Below, one piece after another: positions 10,605 to 52,390 of a DNA stretch of 64,000 nucleotides. The stretch comes from Psilocybe cubensis. Lineage: Eukaryota. The stretch spans positions 2,852,001 through 2,916,000 of the forward strand of contig CM039001.1 of assembly GCA_017499595.2 (NCBI GenBank), read 5' to 3'. The stretch's first letter is position 1; the number at the start of each line of letters is the position of its first letter. The notes beneath the pieces are model-generated. The model saw only the letters and a program-made list of their open reading frames with translations. It was not told the origin of the DNA and ran no database searches. The translations under genes and the position numbers were made by a program.

Positions 10605-10981
10605 TTAGACACTGATAAGTGGCTAAATGAAATCACTATTTACAATCACTTGACTTAAAATGTACTTTTAGATTAGGTAAATAATTTATATTATGACTAA
10701 CCCCAGGGTGCTGCATGTTTGCTGTATGTGTGCTCCATTGCTGCAGTGCTATGGGCTACTGGAATGTTGTGGCCTGTACTATTGGGGTGCTGCAAGTCAC
10801 GTGTGCCATAAGCAGTATGTGGTCTATCAATTCCTATTGCAGTGATATTGCTGTTTGGCCAGTTGCTAAGATTGATATCTCAAAATCCCTATTTGGATTT
10901 TAAGAAGATTTTGGATAGTTGAGTAGATATCCGGAAGAGCAGATATTTGACCGGCTTGGGTCTTTTTAGATAGGTTGTTAC

Positions 10982-11359
10982 TGTTAAAACTGCTCTCTAT
11001 GTCTTCCTCACTTTGCTATCTTATCAGATTAGATTACTTTCTTCTTATCTTTATTTGCTCTCCAGACCATTCTAGACACATGATATTTATCAGTCCATAG
11101 ACTGGTCTGGACCGGACCAGAGTAGACCTAGGTAGACCAGAGTACTTGAGTCTACACAGTATATAGTCACTCTAGTTTACATCCTGAAGTCCCCAGTTAC
11201 TCACTTCGGACTTCAGGTTAGTTTGTTAGCACTTTGCTCAATTCACCCAGTTACACACTTCGGACTTCAGATGCTTTGTGCTCGCTTATCCCTGCGCCCT
11301 ACGTTCTATAACTCGGTCGCCGAGTAGCTCACACTGCCCCGAGCTCGCCTGCTTCAACA
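10982..11359 (+). repeat. Copia A 5' LTR of host copy (378 bp)
   Basis: TGTTAAAAC...TTCAACA, the reverse complement of the five array LTRs. Confidence 0.97.
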
Positions 11360-11371
11360 GGTTATGGGCCC
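11360..11371 (+). promoter_or_regulatory. Primer-binding site, half-tRNA-iMet type
   Basis: GGTTATGGGCCC directly abuts the LTR and is complementary to the anticodon arm of initiator tRNA-Met, as in Drosophila copia and Ty5. Confidence 0.9.
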
Positions 11372-11762
11372 CGCACTCTAAGCGCTCCAATTCCGTGTTT
11401 TGCGAACCAAGTTGCTTTCTGCATAGTTTTCACAAAACGGTCATTTTAGTCTTTTTTGCTTTTTATCCTCTACCAGGCCCGGCCATACATTGCCGCTGCT
11501 AGTAGGGTTGAACGAGCATGCCTTACGCGACTTGTTATCCTCGGTTGAGCGGGCCCCCGTTGCCTAATCCCCGAGTTATTTCTAGTTAAAAGTAACCCTT
11601 TTAAATTAGGCTAGTTTAACTTTGTCTTTTCAACTTGCGTTCGCATCGCACCCCGAGCTCCGGATAACGCCTAGTTTGTTTCCACACATCATTACACATT
11701 TGTACACATTACTACTAACACTCGTATCCATCCGCTTACGTGTTCCTTCGCAATTCGCAATA

Positions 11763-12807
11763 ATGACTTCTGATCCCCAAATCACTTCATTGAACTCAAC
11801 CAACTACAACACCTGGGCAGGCCAGATGACCGCCTATCTCCAGTCTAAAGGGATATGGCGCATTGTCAGCGGTGCTAGAGCACAGCCAACGCTCTCAGAC
11901 AAGCCTACTGCTCAGGAGGAAGCTTTGCTTGAAACCTACTTTGAGCAGAGAGACAAAGCATGTGGTTTGATCTATCTCAGTTTGGAGAATGATCAGAGGG
12001 TTCATGTGAAAGCCATCAAGGATGATCCTATCAAGATGTGGGATGACCTCGCTGCTGTACATCAGCAAAAGCGCCCTGGCAACCGCTTTAATGCATATGA
12101 TGATCTGTTCTCCATCCGAAAGGAGGAAGGTGAAAACCTTCAAACCCTAATCAATAGAGTTGAGCAAGCCATGTTGCTAATTCAGCAGCTTCGCCCTAAG
12201 GGGTTTGATCTGGCTAAGCTTGATGAAGAGCTTGCTTCGCTTGCTCTGGTCAGGGCACTCCCAGAAGAGTACAGTTCATTTGCATCCTCACTTCTCCTTT
12301 TGGACAAGTTGGACAAGGCTACAATTCATCAAGCCTTTGTCACAGAGGACATACAGTGACGTTGCCGTGCTTCGGAGATGCCTGCACTCGCCACCGCGTT
12401 CCAGACCGCTCCAGCCCCTTCTGCATCCAAGCCCAAGTGCGCATTTTGTGATATGACCAATCATGCAATAGACAAGTATCACAAGTTCATTGCTGCGCAA
12501 AAGGATGCGAAGGAGCGTGTCAAAGCGGCTCGCAAAGGCAACAGAGCGCACAAGGCCTCAGAGGCATCCAGTGAGGAAAAAGAGTCCAAGGACATGGAAT
12601 TTGCTGGAAATGCAAGTGCTCTTAATACCGATGTTCCCTCTTCCATTTCACCCCAAACTAATGACGATTGGATTGCAGACACAGGGGCGACTTCTCATAT
12701 GACGCCCCATCGCAATTGGGTTAGAAATTACACCCCCCTTTGCATTCCAATCCGATTAGCAGATGAACGAGTTATTTATTCTGCAGGGGTGGGCACTGTA
12801 TTCTTTG
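11763..12807 (+). pseudogene. gag: Copia gag-protease, disrupted
   Basis: Copia Gag (MTSDPQ...NYNTW), degenerate zinc knuckle, WIADTGATSHM. CGA>TGA stop at 12357. Cut by the array insertion. Confidence 0.92.
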
Positions 12808-13185
12808 TGTTGAAGCAGGCGAGCTCGGGGCAGTGTGAGCTACTCGGCGACCTAGTTATAGAACGTAGGGCGCAGGGATAAGCGAGCACGAAGCGTCTGA
12901 AGTCCGAAGTGAGTAACTGAGTGAATTGAGCAAAGTGCTAACAAACTAACCTGAAGTCCGAAGTGAGTAACTGGGGACTTCAGGATGTAAACTAGAGTGA
13001 CTATATACTGTGTAGACTCAAGTACTCTGGTCTACCTAGGTCTACTCTGGTCCGGTCCAGACCAGTCTATGGACTGATAAATATCATGTATCTAGAATGG
13101 TCTGGAGAGCAAATGAAGATAAGAAGAAAGTAATCTAATCTGATAAGATAGCAAAGTGAGGGAGACATAGAGAGCAGTTTTAACA
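12808..13185 (-). repeat. Copia A LTR (3'-terminal LTR of array)
   Basis: 378 bp, TG...CA, preceded on the minus strand by a PPT. Confidence 0.97.
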
Positions 13186-13194
13186 CTCCCCCCT
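13186..13194 (-). promoter_or_regulatory. Polypurine tract (the only one in the array)
   Basis: Purine run AG6AG on the minus strand immediately before the LTR TG. Confidence 0.9.
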
Positions 13195-13248
13195 ATTCTG
13201 ACAAGTCTCCAGAACAAAGAAAAATAAAGCAAAACAGAGAAAGAAAGA

Positions 13249-16200
13249 TTAAAGTTTGAGACCCATTTTATCTCTACAAAAGTCCACTTTAGGAGGTGAG
13301 AGGGGTTTGGTAAGAATATCAGCAGCTTGCTGATCAGTAGGAATATAAGAAGGAGAAATCTTTCCAACACCAACAGCATCCCTAAGCCAATAATAGCGCA
13401 AATCAAGGTGCTTCATCCGTCCATGGTGCTCTGGATTCTTGGAAACACTGATAGATGACTGGTTGTCCATATGCAGCACAGAGGGCTCAGTGACTGTGTA
13501 GCCAAACTCCTCAAGGATATTGCGCATCCACACAATTTCCTTGGCTGCCTCCACCGCAGCAATGTACTCTGCCTCTGTAGTAGACAGTGTTACAACAGTT
13601 TGGAGTTTGCTTGCCCAGCCAATAGCACCTCCAGCTAGAACGGTCAAATAACCACTCGTAGAGCGTCCAGTATCTACACAATCACCATGTGCAGCATCAG
13701 TGTAGGTGACAAAGTTATCATGGCCCACAGCGCCAGAATAAGTCAACTTGTAATCCAGAGTGCCTCTGAGGTAGCGGAATAAATGTTTAACGGCAGCCCA
13801 ATGCTTAGGCCCAGGATTGGAGTTGAAGCGTGCCAGATAGGACACAGTAAAAGCAATGTCAGGACGGGTCATGGTGGCTAGATACTGCAAGGAGCCAACT
13901 GCATTGAGGTAGGGAACATTTCGCATAAATTCCACCTCATCTCCATTCTGAGGTCCATCTGCCTTGGACAGAACAGTGCCCACAGCCATAGGTGTTTTGA
14001 CCGGATTAGAATCAGTCATGCCATATGTATCAAGCATATCGAGGATATACTGACGCTGATGCAAGGAAATGGTTTTAGCAGCCATATCTCGCTCAATGGC
14101 AACACCAAGTAAATACTGTGTAGGACCCAGATTACGGAGTTCAAAACGCGCAGCTAGCTGCTTAACAGCTCTATCTATGGCGGCGTCCGATTTGGAGGCA
14201 AAAGTAATGCCATGAATATAAATAGGAACAATAATCTTCACATCTCCATCTGAATAGATGTAGACAGAGCGATCTGATTCTATACACTTGAACCCCATAT
14301 CTGACAATGCCTCATGCAACTTGAGGTTCCATTGACGTGCAGACTGCTTAAGACCATAGAGCGACTTTTTGAGCTTCAAAACCATGTTAGAACCACCTTG
14401 GTGAAATCCTTCAGGTTGTAACATGTAAATCTCCTTGTCTAGGTCATCTTTAGTGAAAGCAGCTGTAATATCAACAAAGCACAACTTCAAGTCTCCAATG
14501 GCGGCCAGAGCCACAATCAAGCGGAAAGTAGGAGCAAAGACCTCATGGTAATCAATGCCAGGGCGCTGACTATAGCTCTTGGCAACGATACAAGCCTTGT
14601 AGCGCTCTATACTGCCATCTGCATTTCGCTTGATTTTAAAGACCCAACCACAGCCAATTGCCTTTTGACCCGGAGGGAGCTCAACTTGCTCCCAAGTTTG
14701 ATTGTGCTGCAACAGATTGAATTCTGTGTTAGCAGCCTCTTCCCACATGTGCGCATCAGGCGCTTTCATTGCCTGTTTGAATGTGCGCGGATCTGCGCTT
14801 GAAACAAGCCCAGCAAACTCCACCTCTTCAAATCCAGGATCATTGGCTTCAGGTGGTTCAGGATCATGTGAGACCTTCCACCATTCACCAGGCTGCTTAG
14901 GAACGCGAGTAGTGCGTCTCAACGTTGCAGGATCAACTGGAGCACGCTGGCGGCGTGCAGGCTTAGGAGGAGGTGCAGGAACGGCCTCAGGCTGTGGCGG
15001 TTCAGCTGGCTGTTCAGGAGGCGCAATAGGCACTTCTGGCTCAATGACAGGACTTGGAGTAGAGTCATCCTCATCATCATTAAAATTGAAGCCATTAGAG
15101 TCCCCCCCTGAATTAGGAGGTGGTGCACTTGCAGAAGAAGTGGGAAGAAGGTCAAACTTTGGCATAGGGCCAGTGGACACCCCAGGGAAGCACCTTTCGT
15201 CGAAATCAGCTCTCTCAGAGATAATGAACCTTTTGGTGACTGGGTTGTAAAACTCCCAGCCCTTGTACCCAGTAGGATACCCAACAAAGATACACTTCTC
15301 CATATGAGGCTGCAACGATTTGCGCTTATCTCCCTGAACATAAACATATGCAAGGCAACCCCAAACCCTCAAATGACTAACATCAGGTTTGCGCTTGTTC
15401 CAGCTTTCATACGGAGTCTTGTCCGGTAGAGGAGCTGTAGGAACACGATTCCATACATGCATGTATGCTGCAACACAGCAACCCCAAAACGAAGGTGGTA
15501 CACGAGCCTCATTGAGCATGGAAGTAACATGTTCTGCCATGGTGCGATTTGCACGCTCTGCAACTCCGTTCTGTTGTGGGCGATTTCGCGTTGTATGACG
15601 ACGCTCAATGCCACACTGGTCAGTGAATTTGATGAAAGCATTTGACATGTATTCACCAGCTTTGTCATCCTGCAGCGCTTTGATCTTAAAGCCTAATTTG
15701 TTCTCAGCCCATGCTTTGTACGTTTGAAACGCACTGAATGCATCGCTTTTGCGCTTAAGAAGCACAGCAGCTCTACTCTTTGTATGGTCATCAATAAAGG
15801 TTATCCAGTAGCGATAGCCTTCAGGAGTAGGGGGCGAGATAGGACCTTTCAGATTTGAGAAGATAAGCGCAAGCGGAACATCTGACATGCTTGGTGAAGA
15901 AGGAAATGGGTTGGAATGCATCTTGCCTGCAAGGCAAAGTTCACAAATGGGGTCAGGCTGTTGCTATGAATTCAGCTTGAGTCCAGTAACCATACTCTCT
16001 CTAATTATCTTTTGGAGGTCAGTGTAGCTATGATGAGCAAACCGACGATGCCAGAGACTGATATCAAGGGGTAGAGTGGAATTGGAGGAAATGAAGGCAG
16101 ACTCCGAAATAGGAACTGTATAACCGTTCAATAAAGCGCAGTTTGATGTACTAACATCTGCAGAGAAGAGACAAGCTCCTTTGCGATGAAACTCCATCAG

Positions 16201-17381
16201 ATTAGCATCAATGGTGATTTTGAAGCCTTTGTGCTTTGTGAGGTATAGAACAGACAGTAGATTGTTTCGGAGATCTGGTACATGTAAAACTCTAGTTAAC
16301 TCGACGCCTCTTGACTTTATTCCATTTACAACTGGTTCAAAGAACACAGTGCCCACCCCTGCAGAATAAATAACTCGTTCATCTGCTAATCGGATTGGAA
16401 TGCGAAGGGGGGTGTAATTTCTAACCCAATTGCGATGGGGTGTCATATGAGAAGTCGCCCCTGTGTCTGCAATCCAATCGTCATTAGTTTGGGGTGAAAT
16501 GGAAGAGGGAACATTGGTATTAAGAGCACTTGCATTTCCAGCAAATTCCATGTCCTTGGACTCTTTTTCCTCACTGGATGCCTCTGAGGCCTTGTGCGCT
16601 CTATTGCCTTTGCGAACCGCTTTGACACGCTCCTTCGCATCCTTTTGCGCAGCAATGAACTTGTGACACTTGTCCATTGCATGATTGGTCATATCACAAA
16701 ATGCGCACTTGGGCTTGGATGCAGAAGGGGCTGGAGCGGTCTGGAATGCGGTGGCGAGTGCAGGCAACTCCGAAGCGCGGTGACGTCGCTGTATGTCCTC
16801 TGTGACAAAGGCTTGATGAATTGTAGCCTTGTCCAACTTGTCCAAAAGGAGAAGTGAGGATGCAAATGAACTGTACTTTCTGGGAGTGCCCTGACCAGAG
16901 CAAGCAAAGCAAGCTCTTCATCAAGCTTAGCCAGATCAAACCCCTTAGGGCGAAGCTGCTGAATTAGCAACATGGCTTGCTCAACTCTATTGATCAGGGT
17001 TTGAAGGTTTTCACCTTCCTCCTTTCGGATAGAGAACAGATCATCATATGCATTAAAGCGGTTGCCAGGGCGCTTTTGCTGATGTACAGCGGCCAGGGCA
17101 TCCCACATCTTGATAGGATCATCCTTGATGGCTTCCACATGAACCCTCTGATCATTCTCCAAACTGAGATAGATCAAACCACATGCTTTGTCTCTCTGCT
17201 CCAAGTAGGTTTCAAGCAAAGCTTCCTCCTGAGCAGTAGGCTTGTCTGAGAGCGTTGGCTGTGCTCTAGCACCGCTGACAATGCGCCATATCCCTTTAGA
17301 CTGGAGATAGGCGGTCATCTGGCCTGCCCAGGTGTTGTAGTTGGTTGAGTTCAATGGAGTGATTTGGGGATCAGAAGTCAT
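13249..17381 (-). pseudogene. pol: Copia gag-pol polyprotein, unit 1 (all domains present, disrupted)
   Basis: Gag-PR-IN-RT-RNase H, ending ADILTKPL. Gag frameshift near 16878, TAG at 15964-15966, RT motif YIHG, 15-bp deletion near 14530. Confidence 0.95.
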
Positions 17382-17772
17382 TATTGCGAATTGCGAAGGA
17401 ACGCGTAAGCGGATGGATACGAGTATTGGTAGTAATGTGTGGGGATGTGTAATGATGTGTGGAAACGAACTAGGCGTTACCCGGAGCTCGGGGTGTGATG
17501 CGAACGCAAGTGGAAAAGACGAAGTTAAACTAGCCTAATTTAAAAGGGTTACTTTTAACTAGAAATAACTCGGGGATTAGGCGACGGGGGCCCGCTCAAC
17601 CGAGGTTAACAAGTCGCGTAAGGCGTGCTCGTTCAACCCTACTAGCAGCGGCAATGTATGGCCGGGCCTGGTAGAGGATAAAAACCAAAAAAGACTAAAA
17701 TGACCGTTTTGTGAAAACTATGCAGAAAGCAACTTGGTTCGCAAAACACGGAATTGGAGCGCTTAGAGCGCG

Positions 17773-17784
17773 GGGCCCATAACC
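17773..17784 (-). promoter_or_regulatory. PBS (half-tRNA-iMet); repeated at 22257..22268, 26741..26752 and 31225..31236
   Basis: GGTTATGGGCCC on the minus strand adjoining each upstream LTR. Confidence 0.9.
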
Positions 17785-18162
17785 TGTTGAAGCAGGCGAG
17801 CTCGGGGCAGTGTGAGCTACTCGGCGACCTAGTTATAGAACGTAGGGCGCAGGGATAAGCGAGCACGAAGCGTCTGAAGTCCGAAGTGAGTAACTGGGTG
17901 AATTGAGCAAAGTGCTAACAAACTAACCTGAAGTCCGAAGTGAGTAACTGGGGACTTCAGGATGTAAACTAGAGTGACTATATACTGTGTAGACTCAAGT
18001 ACTCTGGTCTACCTAGGTCTACTCTGGTCCGGTCCAGACCAGTCTATGGACTGATAAATATCATGTATCTAGAATGGTCTGGAGAGCAAATGAAGATAAG
18101 AAGAAAGTAATCTAATCTGATAAGATAGCAAAGTGAGGGAGACATAGAGAGCAGTTTTAACA
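17785..18162 (-). repeat. Copia A shared internal LTR
   Basis: 378 bp. Its 5' TG is fused directly to pol sequence with no PPT. Confidence 0.97.
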
Positions 18163-21100
18163 GCATCAGTGTAGGTGACAAAGTTATCATGGCCCACAGC
18201 GCCAGAATAAGTCAACTTGTAATCCAGAGTGCCTCTGAGGTAGCGGAATAAATGTTTAACCGCAGCCCAATGCTTAGGTCCAGGATTGGAGTTGAAGCGT
18301 GCCAGATAGGACACAGTAAAAGCAATGTCAGGACGGGTCATGGTGGCTAGATACTGCAAGGAGCCAACTGCATTGAGGTAGGGAACATTTCGCATAAATT
18401 CCACCTCATCTCCATTCTGAGGTCCATCTGCCTTGGACAGAACAGTGCCCACAGCCATAGGTGTTTTGACCGGATTAGAATCAGTCATGCCATATGTATC
18501 AAGCATATCGAGGATATACTGACGCTGATGCAAGGAAATGGTTTTAGCAGCCATATCTCGCTCAATGGCAACACCAAGTAAATACTGTGTAGGACCCAGA
18601 TTACGGAGTTCAAAACGCGCAGCTAGCTGCTTAACAGCTCTATCTATGGCGGCGTCCGATTTGGAGGCAAAGGTAATGCCATGAATATAAATAGGAACAA
18701 TAATCTTCACATCTCCATCTGAATAGATGTAGACAGAGCGATCTGATTCTATACACTTGAACCCCATATCTAACAATGCCTCATGCAATTTGAGGTTCCA
18801 TTGATGTGCAGACTGCTTAAGACCATAGAGCGACTTTTTGAGCTTCAAAACCATGTTAGGACCACCTTGGTGAAATCCTTCGGGTTGTAGCATGTAAATC
18901 TCCTCGTCTAGGTCACCTTTAGTGAAAGCAGCTGTAATATCAACAGAGCGCAACTTCAAGTCTCCAATAGCGGCCAGAGCCACAATCAAGCGGAAAGTAG
19001 CAGGGCGGAAAGTAGGAGCAAAGACCTCATGGTAATCAATGCCAGGGCGCTGACTGTAGCCCTTGGCAACAATACGAGCCTTGTAGCACTCTATACTGCC
19101 ATCTGCATTTCGCTTGATTTTAAAGACCCAACCACAGCCAATTGCCTTTTGACCCGGAGGGAGCTCAACTCGCTCCCAAGTTTGATTGTGCTGCAACAGA
19201 TTGAATTCTGTGTTAGCAGCCTCTTCCCACATGTGCGCATCAGGCGCTTTCATTGCCTGTTTGAATGTGCGCGGATCTGCGCTTGAAACAAGCCCAGCAA
19301 ACTCCACCTCTTCAAATCCAGGATCATTGGCTTCAGGTGGTTCAGGATCATGTGAGACCTTCCACCATTCACCAGGCTGCTTAGGAACGCGAGTAGTGCG
19401 TCTCAACGTTGCAGGATCAACTGGAGCACGCTGGCGGCGTGCAGGCTTAGAAGGAGGTGCAGGAACGGCCTCAGGCTGTGGCGGTTCAGCTGGCTGTTCA
19501 GGAGGCGCAATAGGCACTTCTGGCTCAATGACAGGACTTGGAGTAGAGTCATCCTCATCATCATTAAAATTGAAGCCATTAGAGTCCCCCCCTGAATTAG
19601 GAGGTGGTGCACTTGCAGAAGAAGTGGGAAGAAGGTCAAACTTTGGCATAGGGCCAGTGGACACCCCAGGGAAGCACCTTTCGTCGAAATCAGCTCTCTC
19701 AGAGATAATGAACCTTTTGGTGACTGGGTTGTAAAACTCCCAGCCCTTGTACCCAGTAGGATACCCAACAAAGATACACTTCTCCATATGAGGCTGCAAC
19801 GATTTGCGCTTATCTCCCTGAACATAAACATATGCAAGGCAACCCCAAACCCTCAAATGACTAACATCAGGTTTGCGCTTGTTCCAGCTTTCATACGGAG
19901 TCTTGTCCGGTAGAGGAGCTGTAGGAACACGATTCCATACATGCATGTATGCTGCAACACAGCAACCCCAAAACGAAGGTGGTACACGAGCCTCATTGAG
20001 CATGGAAGTAACATGTTCTGCCATGGTGCGATTTGCACGCTCTGCAACTCCGTTCTGTTGTGGGCGATTTCGCGTTGTATGACGACGCTCAATGCCACAC
20101 TGGTCAGTGAATTTGATGAAAGCATTTGACATGTATTCACCAGCTTTGTCATCCTGCAGCGCTTTGATCTTAAAGCCTAATTTGTTCTCAGCCCATGCTT
20201 TGTACGTTTGAAACGCACTGAATGCATCGCTTTTGCGCTTAAGAAGCACAGCAGCTCTACTCTTTGTATGGTCATCAATAAAGGTTATCCAGTAGCGATA
20301 GCCTTCAGGAGTAGGGGGCGAGATAGGACCTTTCAGATTTGAGAAGATAAGCGCAAGCGGAACATCTGACATGCTTGGTGAAGAAGGAAATGGGTTGGAA
20401 TGCATCTTGCCTGCAAGGCAAAGTTCACAAATGGGGTCAGGCTGTTGCTATGAATTCAGCTTGAGTCCAGTAACCATACTCTCTCTAATTATCTTTTGGA
20501 GGTCAGTGTAGCTATGATGAGCAAACCGACGATGCCAGAGACTGATATCAAGGGGTAGAGTGGAATTGGAGGAAATGAAGGCAGACTCCGAAATAGGAAC
20601 TGTATAACCGTTCAATAAAGCGCAGTTTGATGTACTAACATCTGCAGAGAAGAGACAAGCTCCTTTGCGATGAAACTCCATCAGATTAGCATCAATGGTG
20701 ATTTTGAAGCCTTTGTGCTTTGTGAGGTATAGAACAGACAGTAGATTGTTTCGGAGATCTGGTACATGTAAAACTCTAGTTAACTCGACGCCTCTTGACT
20801 TTATTCCATTTACAACTGGTTCAAAGAACACAGTGCCCACCCCTGCAGAATAAATAACTCGTTCATCTGCTAATCGGATTGGAATGCGAAGGGGGGTGTA
20901 ATTTCTAACCCAATTGCGATGGGGTGTCATATGAGAAGTCGCCCCTGTGTCTGCAATCCAATCGTCATTAGTTTGGGGTGAAATGGAAGAGGGAACATTG
21001 GTATTAAGAGCACTTGCATTTCCAGCAAATTCCATGTCCTTGGACTCTTTTTCCTCACTGGATGCCTCTGAGGCCTTGTGCGCTCTATTGCCTTTGCGAA

Positions 21101-21865
21101 CCGCTTTGACACGCTCCTTCGCATCCTTTTGCGCAGCAATGAACTTGTGACACTTGTCCATTGCATGATTGGTCATATCACAAAATGCGCACTTGGGCTT
21201 GGATGCAGAAGGGGCTGGAGCGGTCTGGAATGCGGTGGCGAGTGCAGGCAACTCCGAAGCGCGGTGACGTCGCTGTATGTCCTCTGTGACAAAGGCTTGA
21301 TGAATTGTAGCCTTGTCCAACTTGTCCAAAAGGAGAAGTGAGGATGCAAATGAACTGTACTTTCTGGGAGTGCCCTGACCAGAGCAAGCAAAGCAAGCTC
21401 TTCATCAAGCTTAGCCAGATCAAACCCCTTAGGGCGAAGCTGCTGAATTAGCAACATGGCTTGCTCAACTCTATTGATCAGGGTTTGAAGGTTTTCACCT
21501 TCCTCCTTTCGGATAGAGAACAGATCATCATATGCATTAAAGCGGTTGCCAGGGCGCTTTTGCTGATGTACAGCGGCCAGGGCATCCCACATCTTGATAG
21601 GATCATCCTTGATGGCTTCCACATGAACCCTCTGATCATTCTCCAAACTGAGATAGATCAAACCACATGCTTTGTCTCTCTGCTCCAAGTAGGTTTCAAG
21701 CAAAGCTTCCTCCTGAGCAGTAGGCTTGTCTGAGAGCGTTGGCTGTGCTCTAGCACCGCTGACAATGCGCCATATCCCTTTAGACTGGAGATAGGCGGTC
21801 ATCTGGCCTGCCCAGGTGTTGTAGTTGGTTGAGTTCAATGGAGTGATTTGGGGATCAGAAGTCAT
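18163..21865 (-). pseudogene. pol: Copia gag-pol, unit 2 (RNase H deleted)
   Basis: Same frameshift, stop and YIHG as unit 1. The frame runs from YTDA into LTR sequence. Confidence 0.95.
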
Positions 21866-22268
21866 TATTGCGAATTGCGAAGGAACGCGTAAGCGGATGG
21901 ATACGAGTATTGGTAGTAATGTGTGGGGATGTGTAATGATGTGTGGAAACGAACTAGGCGTTACCCGGAGCTCGGGGTGTTATGCGAACGCAAGTGGAAA
22001 AGACGAAGTTAAACTAGCCTAATTTAAAAGGGTTACTTTTAACTAGAAATAACTCGGGGATTAGGCGACGGGGGCCCGCTCAACCGAGGTTAACAAGTCG
22101 CGTAAGGCGTGCTCGTTCAACCCTACTAGCAGCGGCAATGTATGGCCGGGCCTGGTAGAGGATAAAAACCAAAAAAGACTAAAATGACCGTTTTGTGAAA
22201 ACTATGCAGAAAGCAACTTGGTTCGCAAAACACGGAATTGGAGCGCTTAGAGCGCGGGGCCCATAACC

Positions 22269-22646
22269 TGTTGAAGCAGGCGAGCTCGGGGCAGTGTGAG
22301 CTACTCGGCGACCTAGTTATAGAACGTAGGGCGCAGGGATAAGCGAGCACGAAGCGTCTGAAGTCCGAAGTGAGTAACTGGGTGAATTGAGCAAAGTGCT
22401 AACAAACTAACCTGAAGTCCGAAGTGAGTAACTGGGGACTTCAGGATGTAAACTAGAGTGACTATATACTGTGTAGACTCAAGTACTCTGGTCTACCTAG
22501 GTCTACTCTGGTCCGGTCCAGACCAGTCTATGGACTGATAAATATCATGTATCTAGAATGGTCTGGAGAGCAAATGAAGATAAGAAGAAAGTAATCTAAT
22601 CTGATAAGATAGCAAAGTGAGGGAGACATAGAGAGCAGTTTTAACA
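22269..22646 (-). repeat. Copia A shared internal LTR
   Basis: 378 bp, same junction as at 18162. Confidence 0.97.
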
Positions 22647-25600
22647 GCATCAGTGTAGGTGACAAAGTTATCATGGCCCACAGCGCCAGAATAAGTCAAC
22701 TTGTAATCCAGAGTGCCTCTGAGGTAGCGGAATAAATGTTTAACCGCAGCCCAATGCTTAGGTCCAGGATTGGAGTTGAAGCGTGCCAGATAGGACACAG
22801 TAAAAGCAATGTCAGGACGGGTCATGGTGGCTAGATACTGCAAGGAGCCAACTGCATTGAGGTAGGGAACATTTCGCATAAATTCCACCTCATCTCCATT
22901 CTGAGGTCCATCTGCCTTGGACAGAACAGTGCCCACAGCCATAGGTGTTTTGACCGGATTAGAATCAGTCATGCCATATGTATCAAGCATATCGAGGATA
23001 TACTGACGCTGATGCAAGGAAATGGTTTTAGCAGCCATATCTCGCTCAATGGCAACACCAAGTAAATACTGTGTAGGACCCAGATTACGGAGTTCAAAAC
23101 GCGCAGCTAGCTGCTTAACAGCTCTATCTATGGCGGCGTCCGATTTGGAGGCAAAGGTAATGCCATGAATATAAATAGGAACAATAATCTTCACATCTCC
23201 ATCTGAATAGATGTAGACAGAGCGATCTGATTCTATACACTTGAACCCCATATCTAACAATGCCTCATGCAATTTGAGGTTCCATTGATGTGCAGACTGC
23301 TTAAGACCATAGAGCGACTTTTTGAGCTTCAAAACCATGTTAGGACCACCTTGGTGAAATCCTTCGGGTTGTAGCATGTAAATCTCCTCGTCTAGGTCAC
23401 CTTTAGTGAAAGCAGCTGTAATATCAACAGAGCGCAACTTCAAGTCTCCAATAGCGGCCAGAGCCACAATCAAGCGGAAAGTAGCAGGGCGGAAAGTAGG
23501 AGCAAAGACCTCATGGTAATCAATGCCAGGGCGCTGACTGTAGCCCTTGGCAACAATACGAGCCTTGTAGCACTCTATACTGCCATCTGCATTTCGCTTG
23601 ATTTTAAAGACCCAACCACAGCCAATTGCCTTTTGACCCGGAGGGAGCTCAACTCGCTCCCAAGTTTGATTGTGCTGCAACAGATTGAATTCTGTGTTAG
23701 CAGCCTCTTCCCACATGTGCGCATCAGGCGCTTTCATTGCCTGTTTGAATGTGCGCGGATCTGCGCTTGAAACAAGCCCAGCAAACTCCACCTCTTCAAA
23801 TCCAGGATCATTGGCTTCAGGTGGTTCAGGATCATGTGAGACCTTCCACCATTCACCAGGCTGCTTAGGAACGCGAGTAGTGCGTCTCAACGTTGCAGGA
23901 TCAACTGGAGCACGCTGGCGGCGTGCAGGCTTAGAAGGAGGTGCAGGAACGGCCTCAGGCTGTGGCGGTTCAGCTGGCTGTTCAGGAGGCGCAATAGGCA
24001 CTTCTGGCTCAATGACAGGACTTGGAGTAGAGTCATCCTCATCATCATTAAAATTGAAGCCATTAGAGTCCCCCCCTGAATTAGGAGGTGGTGCACTTGC
24101 AGAAGAAGTGGGAAGAAGGTCAAACTTTGGCATAGGGCCAGTGGACACCCCAGGGAAGCACCTTTCGTCGAAATCAGCTCTCTCAGAGATAATGAACCTT
24201 TTGGTGACTGGGTTGTAAAACTCCCAGCCCTTGTACCCAGTAGGATACCCAACAAAGATACACTTCTCCATATGAGGCTGCAACGATTTGCGCTTATCTC
24301 CCTGAACATAAACATATGCAAGGCAACCCCAAACCCTCAAATGACTAACATCAGGTTTGCGCTTGTTCCAGCTTTCATACGGAGTCTTGTCCGGTAGAGG
24401 AGCTGTAGGAACACGATTCCATACATGCATGTATGCTGCAACACAGCAACCCCAAAACGAAGGTGGTACACGAGCCTCATTGAGCATGGAAGTAACATGT
24501 TCTGCCATGGTGCGATTTGCACGCTCTGCAACTCCGTTCTGTTGTGGGCGATTTCGCGTTGTATGACGACGCTCAATGCCACACTGGTCAGTGAATTTGA
24601 TGAAAGCATTTGACATGTATTCACCAGCTTTGTCATCCTGCAGCGCTTTGATCTTAAAGCCTAATTTGTTCTCAGCCCATGCTTTGTACGTTTGAAACGC
24701 ACTGAATGCATCGCTTTTGCGCTTAAGAAGCACAGCAGCTCTACTCTTTGTATGGTCATCAATAAAGGTTATCCAGTAGCGATAGCCTTCAGGAGTAGGG
24801 GGCGAGATAGGACCTTTCAGATTTGAGAAGATAAGCGCAAGCGGAACATCTGACATGCTTGGTGAAGAAGGAAATGGGTTGGAATGCATCTTGCCTGCAA
24901 GGCAAAGTTCACAAATGGGGTCAGGCTGTTGCTATGAATTCAGCTTGAGTCCAGTAACCATACTCTCTCTAATTATCTTTTGGAGGTCAGTGTAGCTATG
25001 ATGAGCAAACCGACGATGCCAGAGACTGATATCAAGGGGTAGAGTGGAATTGGAGGAAATGAAGGCAGACTCCGAAATAGGAACTGTATAACCGTTCAAT
25101 AAAGCGCAGTTTGATGTACTAACATCTGCAGAGAAGAGACAAGCTCCTTTGCGATGAAACTCCATCAGATTAGCATCAATGGTGATTTTGAAGCCTTTGT
25201 GCTTTGTGAGGTATAGAACAGACAGTAGATTGTTTCGGAGATCTGGTACATGTAAAACTCTAGTTAACTCGACGCCTCTTGACTTTATTCCATTTACAAC
25301 TGGTTCAAAGAACACAGTGCCCACCCCTGCAGAATAAATAACTCGTTCATCTGCTAATCGGATTGGAATGCGAAGGGGGGTGTAATTTCTAACCCAATTG
25401 CGATGGGGTGTCATATGAGAAGTCGCCCCTGTGTCTGCAATCCAATCGTCATTAGTTTGGGGTGAAATGGAAGAGGGAACATTGGTATTAAGAGCACTTG
25501 CATTTCCAGCAAATTCCATGTCCTTGGACTCTTTTTCCTCACTGGATGCCTCTGAGGCCTTGTGCGCTCTATTGCCTTTGCGAACCGCTTTGACACGCTC

Positions 25601-26349
25601 CTTCGCATCCTTTTGCGCAGCAATGAACTTGTGACACTTGTCCATTGCATGATTGGTCATATCACAAAATGCGCACTTGGGCTTGGATGCAGAAGGGGCT
25701 GGAGCGGTCTGGAATGCGGTGGCGAGTGCAGGCAACTCCGAAGCGCGGTGACGTCGCTGTATGTCCTCTGTGACAAAGGCTTGATGAATTGTAGCCTTGT
25801 CCAACTTGTCCAAAAGGAGAAGTGAGGATGCAAATGAACTGTACTTTCTGGGAGTGCCCTGACCAGAGCAAGCAAAGCAAGCTCTTCATCAAGCTTAGCC
25901 AGATCAAACCCCTTAGGGCGAAGCTGCTGAATTAGCAACATGGCTTGCTCAACTCTATTGATCAGGGTTTGAAGGTTTTCACCTTCCTCCTTTCGGATAG
26001 AGAACAGATCATCATATGCATTAAAGCGGTTGCCAGGGCGCTTTTGCTGATGTACAGCGGCCAGGGCATCCCACATCTTGATAGGATCATCCTTGATGGC
26101 TTCCACATGAACCCTCTGATCATTCTCCAAACTGAGATAGATCAAACCACATGCTTTGTCTCTCTGCTCCAAGTAGGTTTCAAGCAAAGCTTCCTCCTGA
26201 GCAGTAGGCTTGTCTGAGAGCGTTGGCTGTGCTCTAGCACCGCTGACAATGCGCCATATCCCTTTAGACTGGAGATAGGCGGTCATCTGGCCTGCCCAGG
26301 TGTTGTAGTTGGTTGAGTTCAATGGAGTGATTTGGGGATCAGAAGTCAT
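22647..26349 (-). pseudogene. pol: Copia gag-pol, unit 3 (RNase H deleted)
   Basis: ORF set identical to unit 2, offset by 4484. Confidence 0.95.
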
Positions 26350-26752
26350 TATTGCGAATTGCGAAGGAACGCGTAAGCGGATGGATACGAGTATTGGTAG
26401 TAATGTGTGGGGATGTGTAATGATGTGTGGAAACGAACTAGGCGTTACCCGGAGCTCGGGGTGTTATGCGAACGCAAGTGGAAAAGACGAAGTTAAACTA
26501 GCCTAATTTAAAAGGGTTACTTTTAACTAGAAATAACTCGGGGATTAGGCGACGGGGGCCCGCTCAACCGAGGTTAACAAGTCGCGTAAGGCGTGCTCGT
26601 TCAACCCTACTAGCAGCGGCAATGTATGGCCGGGCCTGGTAGAGGATAAAAACCAAAAAAGACTAAAATGACCGTTTTGTGAAAACTATGCAGAAAGCAA
26701 CTTGGTTCGCAAAACACGGAATTGGAGCGCTTAGAGCGCGGGGCCCATAACC

Positions 26753-27130
26753 TGTTGAAGCAGGCGAGCTCGGGGCAGTGTGAGCTACTCGGCGACCTAG
26801 TTATAGAACGTAGGGCGCAGGGATAAGCGAGCACGAAGCGTCTGAAGTCCGAAGTGAGTAACTGGGTGAATTGAGCAAAGTGCTAACAAACTAACCTGAA
26901 GTCCGAAGTGAGTAACTGGGGACTTCAGGATGTAAACTAGAGTGACTATATACTGTGTAGACTCAAGTACTCTGGTCTACCTAGGTCTACTCTGGTCCGG
27001 TCCAGACCAGTCTATGGACTGATAAATATCATGTATCTAGAATGGTCTGGAGAGCAAATGAAGATAAGAAGAAAGTAATCTAATCTGATAAGATAGCAAA
27101 GTGAGGGAGACATAGAGAGCAGTTTTAACA
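26753..27130 (-). repeat. Copia A shared internal LTR
   Basis: 378 bp, same junction as at 18162. Confidence 0.97.
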
Positions 27131-30100
27131 GCATCAGTGTAGGTGACAAAGTTATCATGGCCCACAGCGCCAGAATAAGTCAACTTGTAATCCAGAGTGC
27201 CTCTGAGGTAGCGGAATAAATGTTTAACCGCAGCCCAATGCTTAGGTCCAGGATTGGAGTTGAAGCGTGCCAGATAGGACACAGTAAAAGCAATGTCAGG
27301 ACGGGTCATGGTGGCTAGATACTGCAAGGAGCCAACTGCATTGAGGTAGGGAACATTTCGCATAAATTCCACCTCATCTCCATTCTGAGGTCCATCTGCC
27401 TTGGACAGAACAGTGCCCACAGCCATAGGTGTTTTGACCGGATTAGAATCAGTCATGCCATATGTATCAAGCATATCGAGGATATACTGACGCTGATGCA
27501 AGGAAATGGTTTTAGCAGCCATATCTCGCTCAATGGCAACACCAAGTAAATACTGTGTAGGACCCAGATTACGGAGTTCAAAACGCGCAGCTAGCTGCTT
27601 AACAGCTCTATCTATGGCGGCGTCCGATTTGGAGGCAAAGGTAATGCCATGAATATAAATAGGAACAATAATCTTCACATCTCCATCTGAATAGATGTAG
27701 ACAGAGCGATCTGATTCTATACACTTGAACCCCATATCTAACAATGCCTCATGCAATTTGAGGTTCCATTGATGTGCAGACTGCTTAAGACCATAGAGCG
27801 ACTTTTTGAGCTTCAAAACCATGTTAGGACCACCTTGGTGAAATCCTTCGGGTTGTAGCATGTAAATCTCCTCGTCTAGGTCACCTTTAGTGAAAGCAGC
27901 TGTAATATCAACAGAGCGCAACTTCAAGTCTCCAATAGCGGCCAGAGCCACAATCAAGCGGAAAGTAGCAGGGCGGAAAGTAGGAGCAAAGACCTCATGG
28001 TAATCAATGCCAGGGCGCTGACTGTAGCCCTTGGCAACAATACGAGCCTTGTAGCACTCTATACTGCCATCTGCATTTCGCTTGATTTTAAAGACCCAAC
28101 CACAGCCAATTGCCTTTTGACCCGGAGGGAGCTCAACTCGCTCCCAAGTTTGATTGTGCTGCAACAGATTGAATTCTGTGTTAGCAGCCTCTTCCCACAT
28201 GTGCGCATCAGGCGCTTTCATTGCCTGTTTGAATGTGCGCGGATCTGCGCTTGAAACAAGCCCAGCAAACTCCACCTCTTCAAATCCAGGATCATTGGCT
28301 TCAGGTGGTTCAGGATCATGTGAGACCTTCCACCATTCACCAGGCTGCTTAGGAACGCGAGTAGTGCGTCTCAACGTTGCAGGATCAACTGGAGCACGCT
28401 GGCGGCGTGCAGGCTTAGAAGGAGGTGCAGGAACGGCCTCAGGCTGTGGCGGTTCAGCTGGCTGTTCAGGAGGCGCAATAGGCACTTCTGGCTCAATGAC
28501 AGGACTTGGAGTAGAGTCATCCTCATCATCATTAAAATTGAAGCCATTAGAGTCCCCCCCTGAATTAGGAGGTGGTGCACTTGCAGAAGAAGTGGGAAGA
28601 AGGTCAAACTTTGGCATAGGGCCAGTGGACACCCCAGGGAAGCACCTTTCGTCGAAATCAGCTCTCTCAGAGATAATGAACCTTTTGGTGACTGGGTTGT
28701 AAAACTCCCAGCCCTTGTACCCAGTAGGATACCCAACAAAGATACACTTCTCCATATGAGGCTGCAACGATTTGCGCTTATCTCCCTGAACATAAACATA
28801 TGCAAGGCAACCCCAAACCCTCAAATGACTAACATCAGGTTTGCGCTTGTTCCAGCTTTCATACGGAGTCTTGTCCGGTAGAGGAGCTGTAGGAACACGA
28901 TTCCATACATGCATGTATGCTGCAACACAGCAACCCCAAAACGAAGGTGGTACACGAGCCTCATTGAGCATGGAAGTAACATGTTCTGCCATGGTGCGAT
29001 TTGCACGCTCTGCAACTCCGTTCTGTTGTGGGCGATTTCGCGTTGTATGACGACGCTCAATGCCACACTGGTCAGTGAATTTGATGAAAGCATTTGACAT
29101 GTATTCACCAGCTTTGTCATCCTGCAGCGCTTTGATCTTAAAGCCTAATTTGTTCTCAGCCCATGCTTTGTACGTTTGAAACGCACTGAATGCATCGCTT
29201 TTGCGCTTAAGAAGCACAGCAGCTCTACTCTTTGTATGGTCATCAATAAAGGTTATCCAGTAGCGATAGCCTTCAGGAGTAGGGGGCGAGATAGGACCTT
29301 TCAGATTTGAGAAGATAAGCGCAAGCGGAACATCTGACATGCTTGGTGAAGAAGGAAATGGGTTGGAATGCATCTTGCCTGCAAGGCAAAGTTCACAAAT
29401 GGGGTCAGGCTGTTGCTATGAATTCAGCTTGAGTCCAGTAACCATACTCTCTCTAATTATCTTTTGGAGGTCAGTGTAGCTATGATGAGCAAACCGACGA
29501 TGCCAGAGACTGATATCAAGGGGTAGAGTGGAATTGGAGGAAATGAAGGCAGACTCCGAAATAGGAACTGTATAACCGTTCAATAAAGCGCAGTTTGATG
29601 TACTAACATCTGCAGAGAAGAGACAAGCTCCTTTGCGATGAAACTCCATCAGATTAGCATCAATGGTGATTTTGAAGCCTTTGTGCTTTGTGAGGTATAG
29701 AACAGACAGTAGATTGTTTCGGAGATCTGGTACATGTAAAACTCTAGTTAACTCGACGCCTCTTGACTTTATTCCATTTACAACTGGTTCAAAGAACACA
29801 GTGCCCACCCCTGCAGAATAAATAACTCGTTCATCTGCTAATCGGATTGGAATGCGAAGGGGGGTGTAATTTCTAACCCAATTGCGATGGGGTGTCATAT
29901 GAGAAGTCGCCCCTGTGTCTGCAATCCAATCGTCATTAGTTTGGGGTGAAATGGAAGAGGGAACATTGGTATTAAGAGCACTTGCATTTCCAGCAAATTC
30001 CATGTCCTTGGACTCTTTTTCCTCACTGGATGCCTCTGAGGCCTTGTGCGCTCTATTGCCTTTGCGAACCGCTTTGACACGCTCCTTCGCATCCTTTTGC

Positions 30101-30833
30101 GCAGCAATGAACTTGTGACACTTGTCCATTGCATGATTGGTCATATCACAAAATGCGCACTTGGGCTTGGATGCAGAAGGGGCTGGAGCGGTCTGGAATG
30201 CGGTGGCGAGTGCAGGCAACTCCGAAGCGCGGTGACGTCGCTGTATGTCCTCTGTGACAAAGGCTTGATGAATTGTAGCCTTGTCCAACTTGTCCAAAAG
30301 GAGAAGTGAGGATGCAAATGAACTGTACTTTCTGGGAGTGCCCTGACCAGAGCAAGCAAAGCAAGCTCTTCATCAAGCTTAGCCAGATCAAACCCCTTAG
30401 GGCGAAGCTGCTGAATTAGCAACATGGCTTGCTCAACTCTATTGATCAGGGTTTGAAGGTTTTCACCTTCCTCCTTTCGGATAGAGAACAGATCATCATA
30501 TGCATTAAAGCGGTTGCCAGGGCGCTTTTGCTGATGTACAGCGGCCAGGGCATCCCACATCTTGATAGGATCATCCTTGATGGCTTCCACATGAACCCTC
30601 TGATCATTCTCCAAACTGAGATAGATCAAACCACATGCTTTGTCTCTCTGCTCCAAGTAGGTTTCAAGCAAAGCTTCCTCCTGAGCAGTAGGCTTGTCTG
30701 AGAGCGTTGGCTGTGCTCTAGCACCGCTGACAATGCGCCATATCCCTTTAGACTGGAGATAGGCGGTCATCTGGCCTGCCCAGGTGTTGTAGTTGGTTGA
30801 GTTCAATGGAGTGATTTGGGGATCAGAAGTCAT
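27131..30833 (-). pseudogene. pol: Copia gag-pol, unit 4 (RNase H deleted)
   Basis: ORF set identical to unit 2, offset by 8968. Confidence 0.95.
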
Positions 30834-31236
30834 TATTGCGAATTGCGAAGGAACGCGTAAGCGGATGGATACGAGTATTGGTAGTAATGTGTGGGGATGT
30901 GTAATGATGTGTGGAAACGAACTAGGCGTTACCCGGAGCTCGGGGTGTTATGCGAACGCAAGTGGAAAAGACGAAGTTAAACTAGCCTAATTTAAAAGGG
31001 TTACTTTTAACTAGAAATAACTCGGGGATTAGGCGACGGGGGCCCGCTCAACCGAGGTTAACAAGTCGCGTAAGGCGTGCTCGTTCAACCCTACTAGCAG
31101 CGGCAATGTATGGCCGGGCCTGGTAGAGGATAAAAACCAAAAAAGACTAAAATGACCGTTTTGTGAAAACTATGCAGAAAGCAACTTGGTTCGCAAAACA
31201 CGGAATTGGAGCGCTTAGAGCGCGGGGCCCATAACC

Positions 31237-31614
31237 TGTTGAAGCAGGCGAGCTCGGGGCAGTGTGAGCTACTCGGCGACCTAGTTATAGAACGTAGGGC
31301 GCAGGGATAAGCGAGCACGAAGCGTCTGAAGTCCGAAGTGAGTAACTGGGTGAATTGAGCAAAGTGCTAACAAACTAACCTGAAGTCCGAAGTGAGTAAC
31401 TGGGGACTTCAGGATGTAAACTAGAGTGACTATATACTGTGTAGACTCAAGTACTCTGGTCTACCTAGGTCTACTCTGGTCCGGTCCAGACCAGTCTATG
31501 GACTGATAAATATCATGTATCTAGAATGGTCTGGAGAGCAAATGAAGATAAGAAGAAAGTAATCTAATCTGATAAGATAGCAAAGTGAGGGAGACATAGA
31601 GAGCAGTTTTAACA
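31237..31614 (-). repeat. Copia A LTR (5'-terminal LTR of array)
   Basis: 378 bp, followed on the plus strand by the TSD CTTTG. Confidence 0.97.
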
Positions 31615-31619
31615 CTTTG

Positions 31620-45760: not shown

Positions 45761-46219
45761 TTAGGTAGAGACTTAAACAAAAAAATACATCTCCTTACTC
45801 TTTAATCATCTTTATCACCTCCCTCCTAAAACCATTCTCAATCTCTAGAGCGTTTTAAAATACTCTTCCTACATCCAAACTGTCTGACTCTACTCTTCCG
45901 TAGCCTTTTGTGTTATCCACCCTCAACCGTCTCAACAAATTATTCCTAGAAGCTGACTAGCTTTTTCTAGCAATAGAAAGTGAAACTACCTGCTTTGCTG
46001 CTATTCACGAGAATTACAGATTTGTACTGTCAACACTAAATCACCTACTCAGATTCTCGCTTGCTGTTGATTTTCACAATGCTTGTTCTTGCCTTGATTC
46101 TTTGTTTGCCCAGTTTTTGGCTTTACAATCATCTATTGCAGAACTGAGACAGTCTGCAGCTAATCCTGAAAGTATTCACTCCTCTTGTTTCTCAACTCCT
46201 GACAGTCTCCCAGGATGGA

Positions 46220-52286: not shown

Positions 52287-52390
52287 AAGCACTATTGGTA
52301 AAAGATATGTCCCAATGGAATAGATTTAATGTACTAGAAAATGAAAATGACAGACTTGATCCTTAGTCTTCAGATTCTGGTGTAGAAATC

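Follow-up and report, generated by a model that had tools for sequence, protein, structure and literature searches.

Tandem LTR retrotransposons (LTR-RTs) that share LTRs inside one target-site duplication (TSD) have been reported as common and polymorphic, and the start of such arrays and of retrotransposon satellites is described as open (Morales-Diaz et al. 2025, PMC11899658; here and below, statements on published systems refer to the available portions of the cited works). In these plant arrays, LTRs alternate with internal regions, inner LTRs are shared and the number of units varies. A single flanking 5-bp TSD was present in 10 of 28 clear rice cases, and the choice between an origin by unequal LTR recombination and one during retrotransposition was left open (PMC11899658). 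In maize, each monomer of CRM1TR and CRM4TR consists of an LTR and a 5' internal part joined to the next LTR; a start from such an LTR-internal~LTR joint, possibly in nested elements, was proposed, followed by growth through repair from a non-allelic LTR and accompanied by gene-conversion patches (Sharma et al. 2013, PMC3648361). These gypsy-derived repeats are old, and their monomers are shorter than the one described here (about 1.4 kb in CRM4TR, with 39 full-length monomers). In S. pombe, integrase-independent tandem formation by Tf1/Tf2 cDNA adds the new unit on the upstream side of a resident element, the two having one LTR in common, and a Tf1 fragment was part of one clone (Li et al. 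2022, PMC11042837). A shared LTR, one TSD and near-identical outer LTRs also characterize three-LTR insertions (Sabot and Schulman 2007, PMC1950507; Zeng and Sun, 10.1101/452573) and Cassandra TRIM arrays (PMC7215508), which contain complete cores or miniature elements. Finally, autointegration deletion circles of Ty1/copia elements (SISYPHUS, PMC7197481; scenario IV, PMC4751563) carry one LTR contiguous with an element truncated at the integration site, and are extrachromosomal dead ends.

Here we describe an array in a 64,000-nucleotide stretch of Psilocybe cubensis contig CM039001.1 (the window). The array, in the genome of a mushroom-type fungus, is real and belongs to a known kind of tandem retrotransposon structure; it shares with the plant arrays the alternating layout, the shared inner LTRs and the single 5-bp TSD. 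In contrast to them, it is a fungal copia array in which an exact LTR-end joint truncates three of the four units, and its amplification can be dated to after the split of the unit types. Compared with the maize repeats, the monomer is large (4.5 kb) and present in three copies, with the complete parent and the TSD still attached. The joint of an LTR end to RNase H distinguishes the locus from the Tf1/Tf2 tandems, as does an amplified unit that appears dead and has a chromosomal history. Unlike the deletion circles, the unit is chromosomal in the assembly, and unlike the three-LTR insertions and Cassandra, it is a coding monomer in truncated form that occurs three times over. In the literature searched, which comprised few subscription papers and no supplements, no fungal example with precisely this layout was found.

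Structure and coding state of the array

The array and the neighbouring copies of its family have the following features.

7652..10604, minus strand: copy C, a third copy of the family, in decayed fragments (7652-7734 and 8193-10604)
10982..12807, plus strand: host copy B, left half (5' LTR at 10982-11359, gag, start of the protease region)
12803..12807, plus strand: TSD CTTTG, left copy
12808..13185, minus strand: LTR1, 3' LTR of the whole structure, 378 bp, TG...CA, private difference at 12920
13186..17784, minus strand: unit 1 internal region, complete, 4599 bp (PBS, gag, protease, integrase, RT, RNase H, PPT)
13186..13693, minus strand: 508-bp 3' segment present only in unit 1 (most of RNase H; polypurine tract, PPT, at about 13186-13199)
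14303..14687, minus strand: 385-bp RT patch that differs between unit 1 and units 2-4
17785..18162, minus strand: LTR2 (shared), 5' LTR of unit 1, U3 end joined to unit 2 RNase H
18163..22268, minus strand: unit 2 internal region, 3'-truncated, 4106 bp
22269..22646, minus strand: LTR3 (shared), joint 22646/22647
22647..26752, minus strand: unit 3 internal region, identical to unit 2
26753..27130, minus strand: LTR4 (shared), joint 27130/27131
27131..31236, minus strand: unit 4 internal region, identical to unit 2
31237..31614, minus strand: LTR5, 5' LTR of the whole structure
31615..31619, plus strand: TSD CTTTG, right copy
31615..33792, plus strand: host copy B, right half (integrase, part of RT; internal deletions; no 3' end)

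The five LTRs of the minus-strand array (378 bp each) start at 12808, 17785, 22269, 26753 and 31237, at spacings of 4977, 4484, 4484 and 4484. LTR2 to LTR5 are identical, and LTR1 deviates only at 12920, by a C-to-T change on the element strand relative to LTR2-5 and to host copy B. All three pairwise comparisons among the 4106-bp internal regions of units 2, 3 and 4 gave 0 differences. Unit 1 is 493 bp longer: it has 508 extra 3' bases, comprising most of RNase H and the polypurine tract, and further differs by a 15-bp deletion and 22 substitutions. With T for truncated and F for complete, the order on the element strand is LTR-T-LTR-T-LTR-T-LTR-F-LTR. At the joint of LTR2 and unit 2 (18162/18163), the LTR end runs exactly into RNase H, with a 2-bp match and no PPT, and the pol frame of unit 2 leaves RNase H after FVTYTDA and continues into the LTR. 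Splicing was rejected as an explanation for the missing 508 bp, since in no register compatible with the joint does the lost segment start with GT or GC.

The CTTTG TSD flanks the whole array (12803-12807 and 31615-31619). It is not a chance match, because the flanks are the two halves of host copy B and the uninterrupted family sequence at the insertion place contains CTTTG once. Copy B is an older, oppositely oriented member of the same family, about 97% identical; copy C, about 95% identical, served as outgroup, and the family comprises ~30 near-identical copies. No matching 5-mers were found on the two sides of any inner LTR (0/3). Coordinates, flank comparison and alignments thus bear out what the first-pass annotation had read from the letters: five LTRs within one perfect CTTTG TSD, units 2-4 repeating identically with an exact 4484-bp period, and a single LTR difference at 12920. 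Its four-unit concatemer stands as to the number of units in the assembly and fails as to their equality, unit 1 being complete and units 2-4 being 3'-truncated.

Alternation of LTRs and internal regions, LTRs at both ends and a single outer TSD with none inside place the locus among tandem LTR-RT arrays (PMC11899658). A satellite or macrosatellite is a long array of many head-to-tail monomers kept in a population, and the assembly contains three monomers. "Macrosatellite" is therefore too strong a word for three copies, and the earlier statement that the element is turning into one is a forecast.

Direct LTRs with TG...CA ends and a 5-bp TSD point to the Ty1/copia group, as do the domain order of gag, protease, integrase, RT and RNase H and the copia-type RT (RNase H was recognized by motif pattern match only). 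Pfam matches on the minus strand follow the order PF14223, PF22936, PF13976, PF00665 (below cut-off), PF25597 and PF07727. A PPT precedes the 3' LTR in unit 1 and is absent in all three truncated units. A 12-mer PBS candidate, presumably of the half-tRNA iMet type, directly follows the LTR at four positions (17773..17784, minus strand; 22257-22268; 26741-26752; 31225-31236), and the 12-mer also turned up in five papers of the searched literature. No tRNA gene was detected within the 64-kb window, and an exact-pattern scan of metagenome and viral contigs for the PBS-LTR border gave no match. A broader protein search returned mostly distant plant and other elements, and a separate protein search recovered close relatives.

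In unit 1, gag is frameshifted near 16877, a stop lies at 15964-15966, integrase has lost its first Asp (15855) and RT YIDD is changed to YIHG (14210-14214). The same four lesions occur in unit 2, and units 3 and 4 are identical to unit 2. By the same pattern, YIDD was found in five of seven relatives, with no pattern match in the other two. An open gag-pol frame with intact catalytic residues, as in an autonomous Ty1/copia element, is thus lacking, and every unit of the array is predicted from its sequence to be enzymatically dead. Such units would be unable to transpose by themselves, so that the array would now grow or shrink only by recombination.

The exact array sequence occurred in none of the sequencing runs compared (best share of words 0.63). 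No RNA run was among those listed, which has no bearing on expression. The array joint and the two TSD junctions were not among the 15 of 155 joints listed from four other runs, and an exact-pattern scan of metagenome contigs for the joint gave 0 matches. These observations would fit an assembly artefact in whole or in part, in which two haplotypes were joined across a 2.5-kb identical stretch plus LTR, or the unit number is wrong and the true T count is 1, 2 or more than 3. Units 2-4 contain no distinguishing base, and a 14.1-kb read (17497 to the right TSD) would be needed to fix their number. However, ordinary long reads can extend from the joint to the right TSD (4.5 kb) and to the left end of copy B (7.2 kb), so that one T unit at least is unlikely to be spurious. 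T also carries its own consistent alleles, and assemblers collapse identical repeats more often than they expand them, which counts against an artefact. Overall, we consider this explanation quite unlikely.

Divergence of the unit types and order of events

The differences between the unit types are unevenly distributed. The 385-bp RT patch holds 17 of the 22 substitutions as well as the 15-bp indel (near 14520), compared to 6 differing sites in 4084 bp outside it. The log-likelihood of this distribution was -107.7 for a short patch, -114.8 for one breakpoint and -137.0 for a uniform distribution, with boundaries picked after viewing the data. Unit 1 as a single-crossover chimera was accordingly rejected in favour of the short patch, which is likely a conversion or template-switch tract. 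Copies B and C were rejected as its donors; both unit types differ from them at 9 patch sites.

At 23 of the 40 sites listed, T and F have a minority allele in common; the RT, integrase and stop lesions are among these. In view of these alleles and the few differences outside the patch, the two are sister copies. Lesion alleles of their lineage were found in about 4-7% of reads; T and F belong to a rare dead lineage.

At six sites, T has private C-to-T-type transitions common to all three T copies, where unit 1 and both outgroups agree; absence from a read-variant list against unit 1 was also required, and this list missed 2 of 10 comparable sites. For the same shortfall of the list, an inference of the family majority allele at 12920 from absence in it was set aside. 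T thus acquired its own mutations before being triplicated. If the triplication were as old as the split, the probability that all 6 scattered differences fall on the F and T branches would be low (binomial P = 0.003). The triplication is therefore shown statistically to be later than the split of the two unit types, which is also evident from the identity of units 2-4 as opposed to the differences between them and unit 1. The earlier reading of a very recent amplification is supported by the 0 differences among units 2-4.

Its further claim of DNA-level amplification rather than four transpositions also holds, since units 2-4 lack the PPT and most of RNase H, share a joint and are identical. 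In contrast, one integration event plus amplification of one element finds no support in this form: the repeated monomer is a truncated sister, its joint looks like the work of integrase, and it carries its own mutations from before the triplication, which argues against a single rolling-circle burst from fresh cDNA identical to unit 1.

Origin of the joint between LTR end and RNase H

We favour, with moderate confidence, an origin of the joint by nested self-insertion, with unequal LTR recombination building and amplifying the array. A defective family member, presumably mobilized in trans, would first have integrated into the older copy B, leaving the CTTTG duplication. The RNase H region of this resident would then have received a second family member, oriented like itself, and this insertion would create the exact joint of RNase H and LTR end. 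Unequal LTR recombination, between sister chromatids or between nested and un-nested alleles, may subsequently have deleted the far side of the nest. This step would leave LTR-T-LTR-F-LTR within the original TSD and would thus make T and F sister copies that differ by a few separate mutations and a converted patch. The three LTR-T units would result from later unequal exchange or break repair between identical LTRs or units.

In support of the nest, the joint lies exactly at the LTR terminus and lacks a PPT, and the array is itself inserted in another member of its family. The maize repeats (PMC3648361) and the shared-LTR tandems (PMC11899658) are published parallels. Of 155 joints in four other runs, 15 are listed, and four of these, all distinct from the array joint, connect an LTR end to the family's own internal region. 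One of these is a true same-orientation nest with both sides of its 5-bp TSD (13881-13885), found in both raw-read runs (2/2); it lies 187 bp from the array's joint and has 1-2 matching bases at its ends. The array joint appears to be integrase-made, probably in a second integration-type event. Against the nest, at least four steps are required. At a nested same-family insertion, the TSD lies on both sides of the inner element, while here one side survives at the joint; the other half, a TSD copy adjoining the LTR 3' end, is absent from the 64-kb window, so the model must assume extra recombination. Nor do the array joint and its TSD junctions occur among those 15 of 155 joints, so that no intermediate allele was observed.

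The same joint geometry, one LTR whose exact end meets an internal same-strand site, also defines an autointegration deletion circle (PMC7197481). Sister-copy cDNA attacking its own RNase H would give a 4484-bp one-LTR circle, containing the 5' LTR and the internal region up to the attack site, which would have entered via its LTR upstream of the resident complete element, either as one copy amplified later or as a rolling-circle trimer. This alternative is the main rival of the nest, and we regard it as rather unlikely. In its favour, the monomer consists of precisely one LTR and the 5' portion that ends at the joint, which matches the description of such circles (PMC7197481; PMC4751563), and a reciprocal junction is unnecessary. 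At site 17497, unit 1 has retained its own allele, while the allele of T is found in unit 4; this locates the exchange in or next to the LTR, as in the Tf1 cDNA that inserts upstream of a resident Tf2 and shares one LTR with it (PMC11042837). However, ~30 copies offer LTR homology, yet the partner is a sister from a rare dead lineage. Moreover, such circles are described as non-productive (PMC7197481), and yeast eccDNA sequencing, in the available text, gave no clear sign of them (PMC4751563). Rolling-circle copying of a fresh unit 1, three times over, is at odds with the private mutations of T, since these predate the triplication.

Formation before integration, with an LTR-T-LTR-F-LTR dimer integrating once and T being amplified afterwards, would account jointly for the one TSD, the near-identical LTRs and the missing reciprocal junction. 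The dimer could stem from an abnormal template jump in reverse transcription, from cDNA-cDNA recombination or one-ended integration, or from a retrotransposed read-through transcript of a nested donor. Three-LTR insertions with a TSD have been proposed (PMC1950507; 10.1101/452573), although those cases have complete internal regions. The 2-bp match at the joint is compatible with a template jump, but such matches arise readily by chance (8% of positions have CA) and one also occurs at the true nested insertion. The route further calls for a pair of sister RNAs from a rare lineage, or else for a donor locus, and we find it highly doubtful.

Tandem duplication of the complete element by LTR exchange, followed by a 508-bp microhomology deletion in the upstream copy and amplification, would dispense with a second integrase event and directly explain the sister relationship and the single TSD. 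The family does have several internal deletions with 0-3 matching bases in other runs. Yet one deletion end must hit the LTR terminus exactly, which we estimate at roughly 3 in 5000 positions if random; LTR-end joints, by contrast, are frequent in this copia family. This course of events is very improbable.

Implications for tandem retrotransposon arrays

The locus reveals no new system and implies no function. Tandems are also reported for Ty1 and Ty5, which stand beside Tf1/Tf2 among the closest known systems. It is conceivable, though rather unlikely, that the monomer is a retrotransposon "suicide" product, an autointegration deletion circle rescued by recombination into a resident element and then amplified. 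The searched literature contained no precedent for a chromosomally rescued, amplified circle of this kind; if true, the array would be a natural chromosomal fossil, and autointegration circles could seed tandem repeats.

In either case, the locus provides a compact snapshot, in which the complete parent, its TSD, the founding joint and three fresh copies stand side by side. Private alleles order the events, from the joint through divergence to triplication. Since this order is readable at the locus, a nest with unequal exchange and a circle can be tested against each other through the alleles of other strains.

Anatomy of the array and its surroundings

The minus-strand Ty1/copia array at 12808..31614 exists in the assembly, with a more intricate structure than the first-pass annotation had given. 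It comprises one complete unit (unit 1, internal 13186..17784, termed F) and three 3'-truncated units (units 2-4, termed T).

Features of the array and of its neighbouring family copies
Starts 12808, 17785, 22269, 26753 and 31237, 378 bp each: LTR1 to LTR5 (window self-comparison and direct slicing)
Minus strand: gag (PF14223, Pfam)
Minus strand, after gag: protease barrel (PF22936, Pfam)
Minus strand, after the protease barrel: GAG-pre-integrase (Pfam)
Minus strand, after GAG-pre-integrase: integrase (PF00665, score below cut-off)
Minus strand, after integrase: SH3 (Pfam)
Minus strand, after SH3: copia-type RT (PF07727, Pfam)
Minus strand, after RT: RNase H (sequence motifs)
Directly past every 5' LTR: PBS candidate
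Adjoining LTR1, internal side: purine tract
10982-12807 and 31615-33792, strand opposite to the array: copy B, older, of the array's own family, forming the array flanks
7652-10604: copy C, third, decayed copy of the array's family

Direct slicing of the window gave LTR-to-LTR spacings of 4977, 4484, 4484 and 4484. The proposed layout of five LTRs within one outer target-site duplication (TSD) was confirmed: CTTTG lies on both outer sides of the array, while inspection of the flanks revealed no TSD of their own at the inner LTRs (0/3). Since copy B supplies both flanks, one half on each side, and CTTTG occurs once at the insertion site in uninterrupted family sequence, the TSD is real. Formation of the array before integration is decidedly improbable. 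The claimed identity of units 2-4 at a 4484-bp period also held, as their internal regions were identical in all three pairwise comparisons, and so did the claim of a sole LTR difference at 12920, which distinguishes LTR1 from the identical LTR2-5 on direct slicing and comparison. Every LTR (e.g. 17785-18162) carries at element positions 211-289 two direct copies of a 25-bp repeat, 29 bp apart, which follow a TATA-like box. An intron-like 54-nt GT...AG stretch extends from the end of the first repeat copy to that of the second, and the 12920 difference falls inside the second copy in LTR1.

In protein searches, the closest named relatives were from Agaricomycetes, namely Taiwanofungus (57%) and Sparassis (58%) over the full query, with Psilocybe cyanescens (70%) and Agrocybe (71%) each matching about one third of it. 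Pfam matches were found for 16 of 28 scanned window ORFs, all 16 exclusively to retrotransposon families, and the array flanks are CpG-depleted; this suggests a transposon-dense, probably heterochromatic region. A gypsy chromovirus-type element at 50282-57276 (capsid, RT, RNase H, integrase, chromodomain) has a CpG observed/expected ratio of 0.0 across 50282-56498, and a related LTR at 7736-8187 breaks copy C. More distant copia remnants (tblastn matches) lie at 37913-45415, with gag at 37913-38563 and protease at 41081, and at 60092-61772. Additionally, the window contains an inverted repeat (46214-47277 / 48234-49297; 1064 bp, 98.7% identical, ~1-kb core), which is probably a foldback or TIR element and has a 372-bp relative at 59032-59403, and a dispersed direct repeat (1603-3117 / 43129-44650; 1.5 kb, 84% identical), in which two tested ORFs gave no Pfam match.

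Two unit types and the order of events

Unit 1 is complete, and units 2-4 lack its final 508 bp (13186-13693). In the T units, RNase H ends after FVTYTDA and is followed immediately by the next LTR, starting with its first base; at this joint (13185 to 13694 in unit 1 coordinates) there is a 2-bp match and the purine tract, a cis element required for normal plus-strand priming, is absent. We infer that the joint is an integrase product, because it lies exactly at the LTR terminus, where a random deletion would rarely end. The same consideration makes a plain microhomology deletion very improbable.

Units 1 and 2 differ by 22 substitutions and one 15-bp indel. A 385-bp RT patch contains 17 of these substitutions and the indel, a clustering equalled in 0 of 200000 random placements; outside it, 5 scattered differences in 3706 bp, together with the LTR site, correspond to 0.15%. 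Where both outgroups, B and C, provide sequence, unit 1 has 10 private sites. At 7 sites unit 2 departs from unit 1, B and C, and at one of these, 14436, the unit 2 letter is that of the family majority. Both unit types share a gag frameshift, a pre-integrase stop, an integrase without its first aspartate and the RT change YIDD to YIHG. T and F are thus sister copies of a single dead lineage. Neither can transpose alone, and the array is not an autonomous element.

With no differences among the three T copies, their divergence is at most 0.022% per site (95% upper bound). Were the triplication as old as the F/T split, ~10 differences would be expected (conditional binomial P = 0.003). As all three copies also carry the T-private changes, the joint and the split came first and amplification followed. 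Of the earlier proposal of one integration plus recent DNA-level amplification, the recent amplification is supported; a single event yielding four equal units is not, given that the split precedes the triplication.

Among the 40 sites listed against the family majority, none falls in 16782-17784 or the LTRs, where extrapolation from the remainder of the unit predicts ~8.5. This hints, indirectly, that a young 5' end may have been combined with an older, decayed body. Four mutations within 15 bp (14210-14224) affect both RT catalytic aspartates, and eight within 80 bp surround the stop (15938-16017). Copy C has all 8 of the latter alleles and copy B 5, which suggests exchange between neighbouring copies. 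C and B (8193-9783 / 32230-33691) are nearly identical in part of RT/integrase (0/500, then 3/250 differences) and differ by up to 17/179 beside it, a pattern of patchwork conversion or template switching.

The family in other samples

The best share of sampled words from 9800-18400 in 23 runs was 0.63, so none of these looks like the array's source. Four were compared on unit 1, two Illumina runs (~1/4 of each) and two contig sets. The family has ~30 or more copies in the compared runs (main-contig over single-junction depth, 29-35). The stop, integrase and RT lesions are absent from 93-97% of reads and the gag frameshift from 72-74%, which makes helper elements plausible.

Among the 15 joints listed of 155, five rows join an LTR end to four other internal family sites (13881-13885, 15384, 15578 and 16159 in unit 1 coordinates; runs X21, X22, X1, X2). 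Two of these rows represent a nest in the same orientation, found in both raw-read runs, whose 5-bp TSD lies at 13881-13885. Several independent self-insertions, together with the array inside B, suggest a habit of self-nesting. This perhaps reflects targeting of a centromere-like region, comparable to the centromeric copia elements described in a mushroom (PMC10817607).

Deletion joints characteristic of B and of C were seen in all four runs; the array joint and the TSD junctions were not among the 15 of 155 joints listed. With 13-45 reads per single-copy joint and run, and ~64 in total for the weakest listed rows, a joint present three times would probably have appeared in either raw-read run, an expectation that holds for neither the contig runs nor single-copy junctions. 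The simplest reading is a strain-restricted array; an assembly artefact is quite improbable.

Origin of the array and published tandems

We infer, at about even chances, that nested insertion followed by unequal LTR recombination formed the array. A relative would have inserted into RNase H of a resident element. Unequal exchange between LTRs, involving either sisters or a nested and an un-nested allele, would then have dropped the far side of the nest, leaving LTR-T-LTR-F-LTR within the original TSD. This route would explain the sister relationship of T and F with no appeal to coincidence and is favoured by its use of an event observed in the family. Deletion circles from autointegration, the second integrase route to a joint of this shape, are described elsewhere (PMC7197481, PMC4751563), and such a circle might have recombined via the LTR upstream of a resident copy. 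This would dispense with a reciprocal junction and fit the mapped exchange position, as unit 1 retains its own allele at 17497, but the circle would have to be a sister of a rare lineage picked out of ~30 copies, and we consider this route unlikely. That the T monomer is itself an autointegration circle, rescued and amplified, is likewise unlikely.

Nested insertion and LTR recombination have counterparts in published systems. The proposal for maize CRM-derived repeats is that they began at an LTR-internal~LTR joint, perhaps through nested elements, and grew by non-allelic LTR repair (PMC3648361). Tf1 cDNA joins resident Tf2 on its upstream side through Rad52-dependent annealing to give tandems, and Tf1/Tf2-type tandems are reported in wild S. 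pombe isolates (PMC11042837). Three-LTR insertions with a TSD (PMC1950507, 10.1101/452573), routes to TE tandems (10.1101/158386) and Cassandra arrays (PMC7215508) are also described. In plants, shared-LTR tandems inside one TSD are reported as common and polymorphic, with 266 candidates in a rice pangenome, and our array has the structure by which tandem LTR-RT arrays are defined there (PMC11899658). It works like these published tandems. The suggestion that the element is turning into a macrosatellite goes too far for an array that, at three copies, is no satellite. Tandem LTR-RT arrays are already a published kind, to which this array adds another instance.
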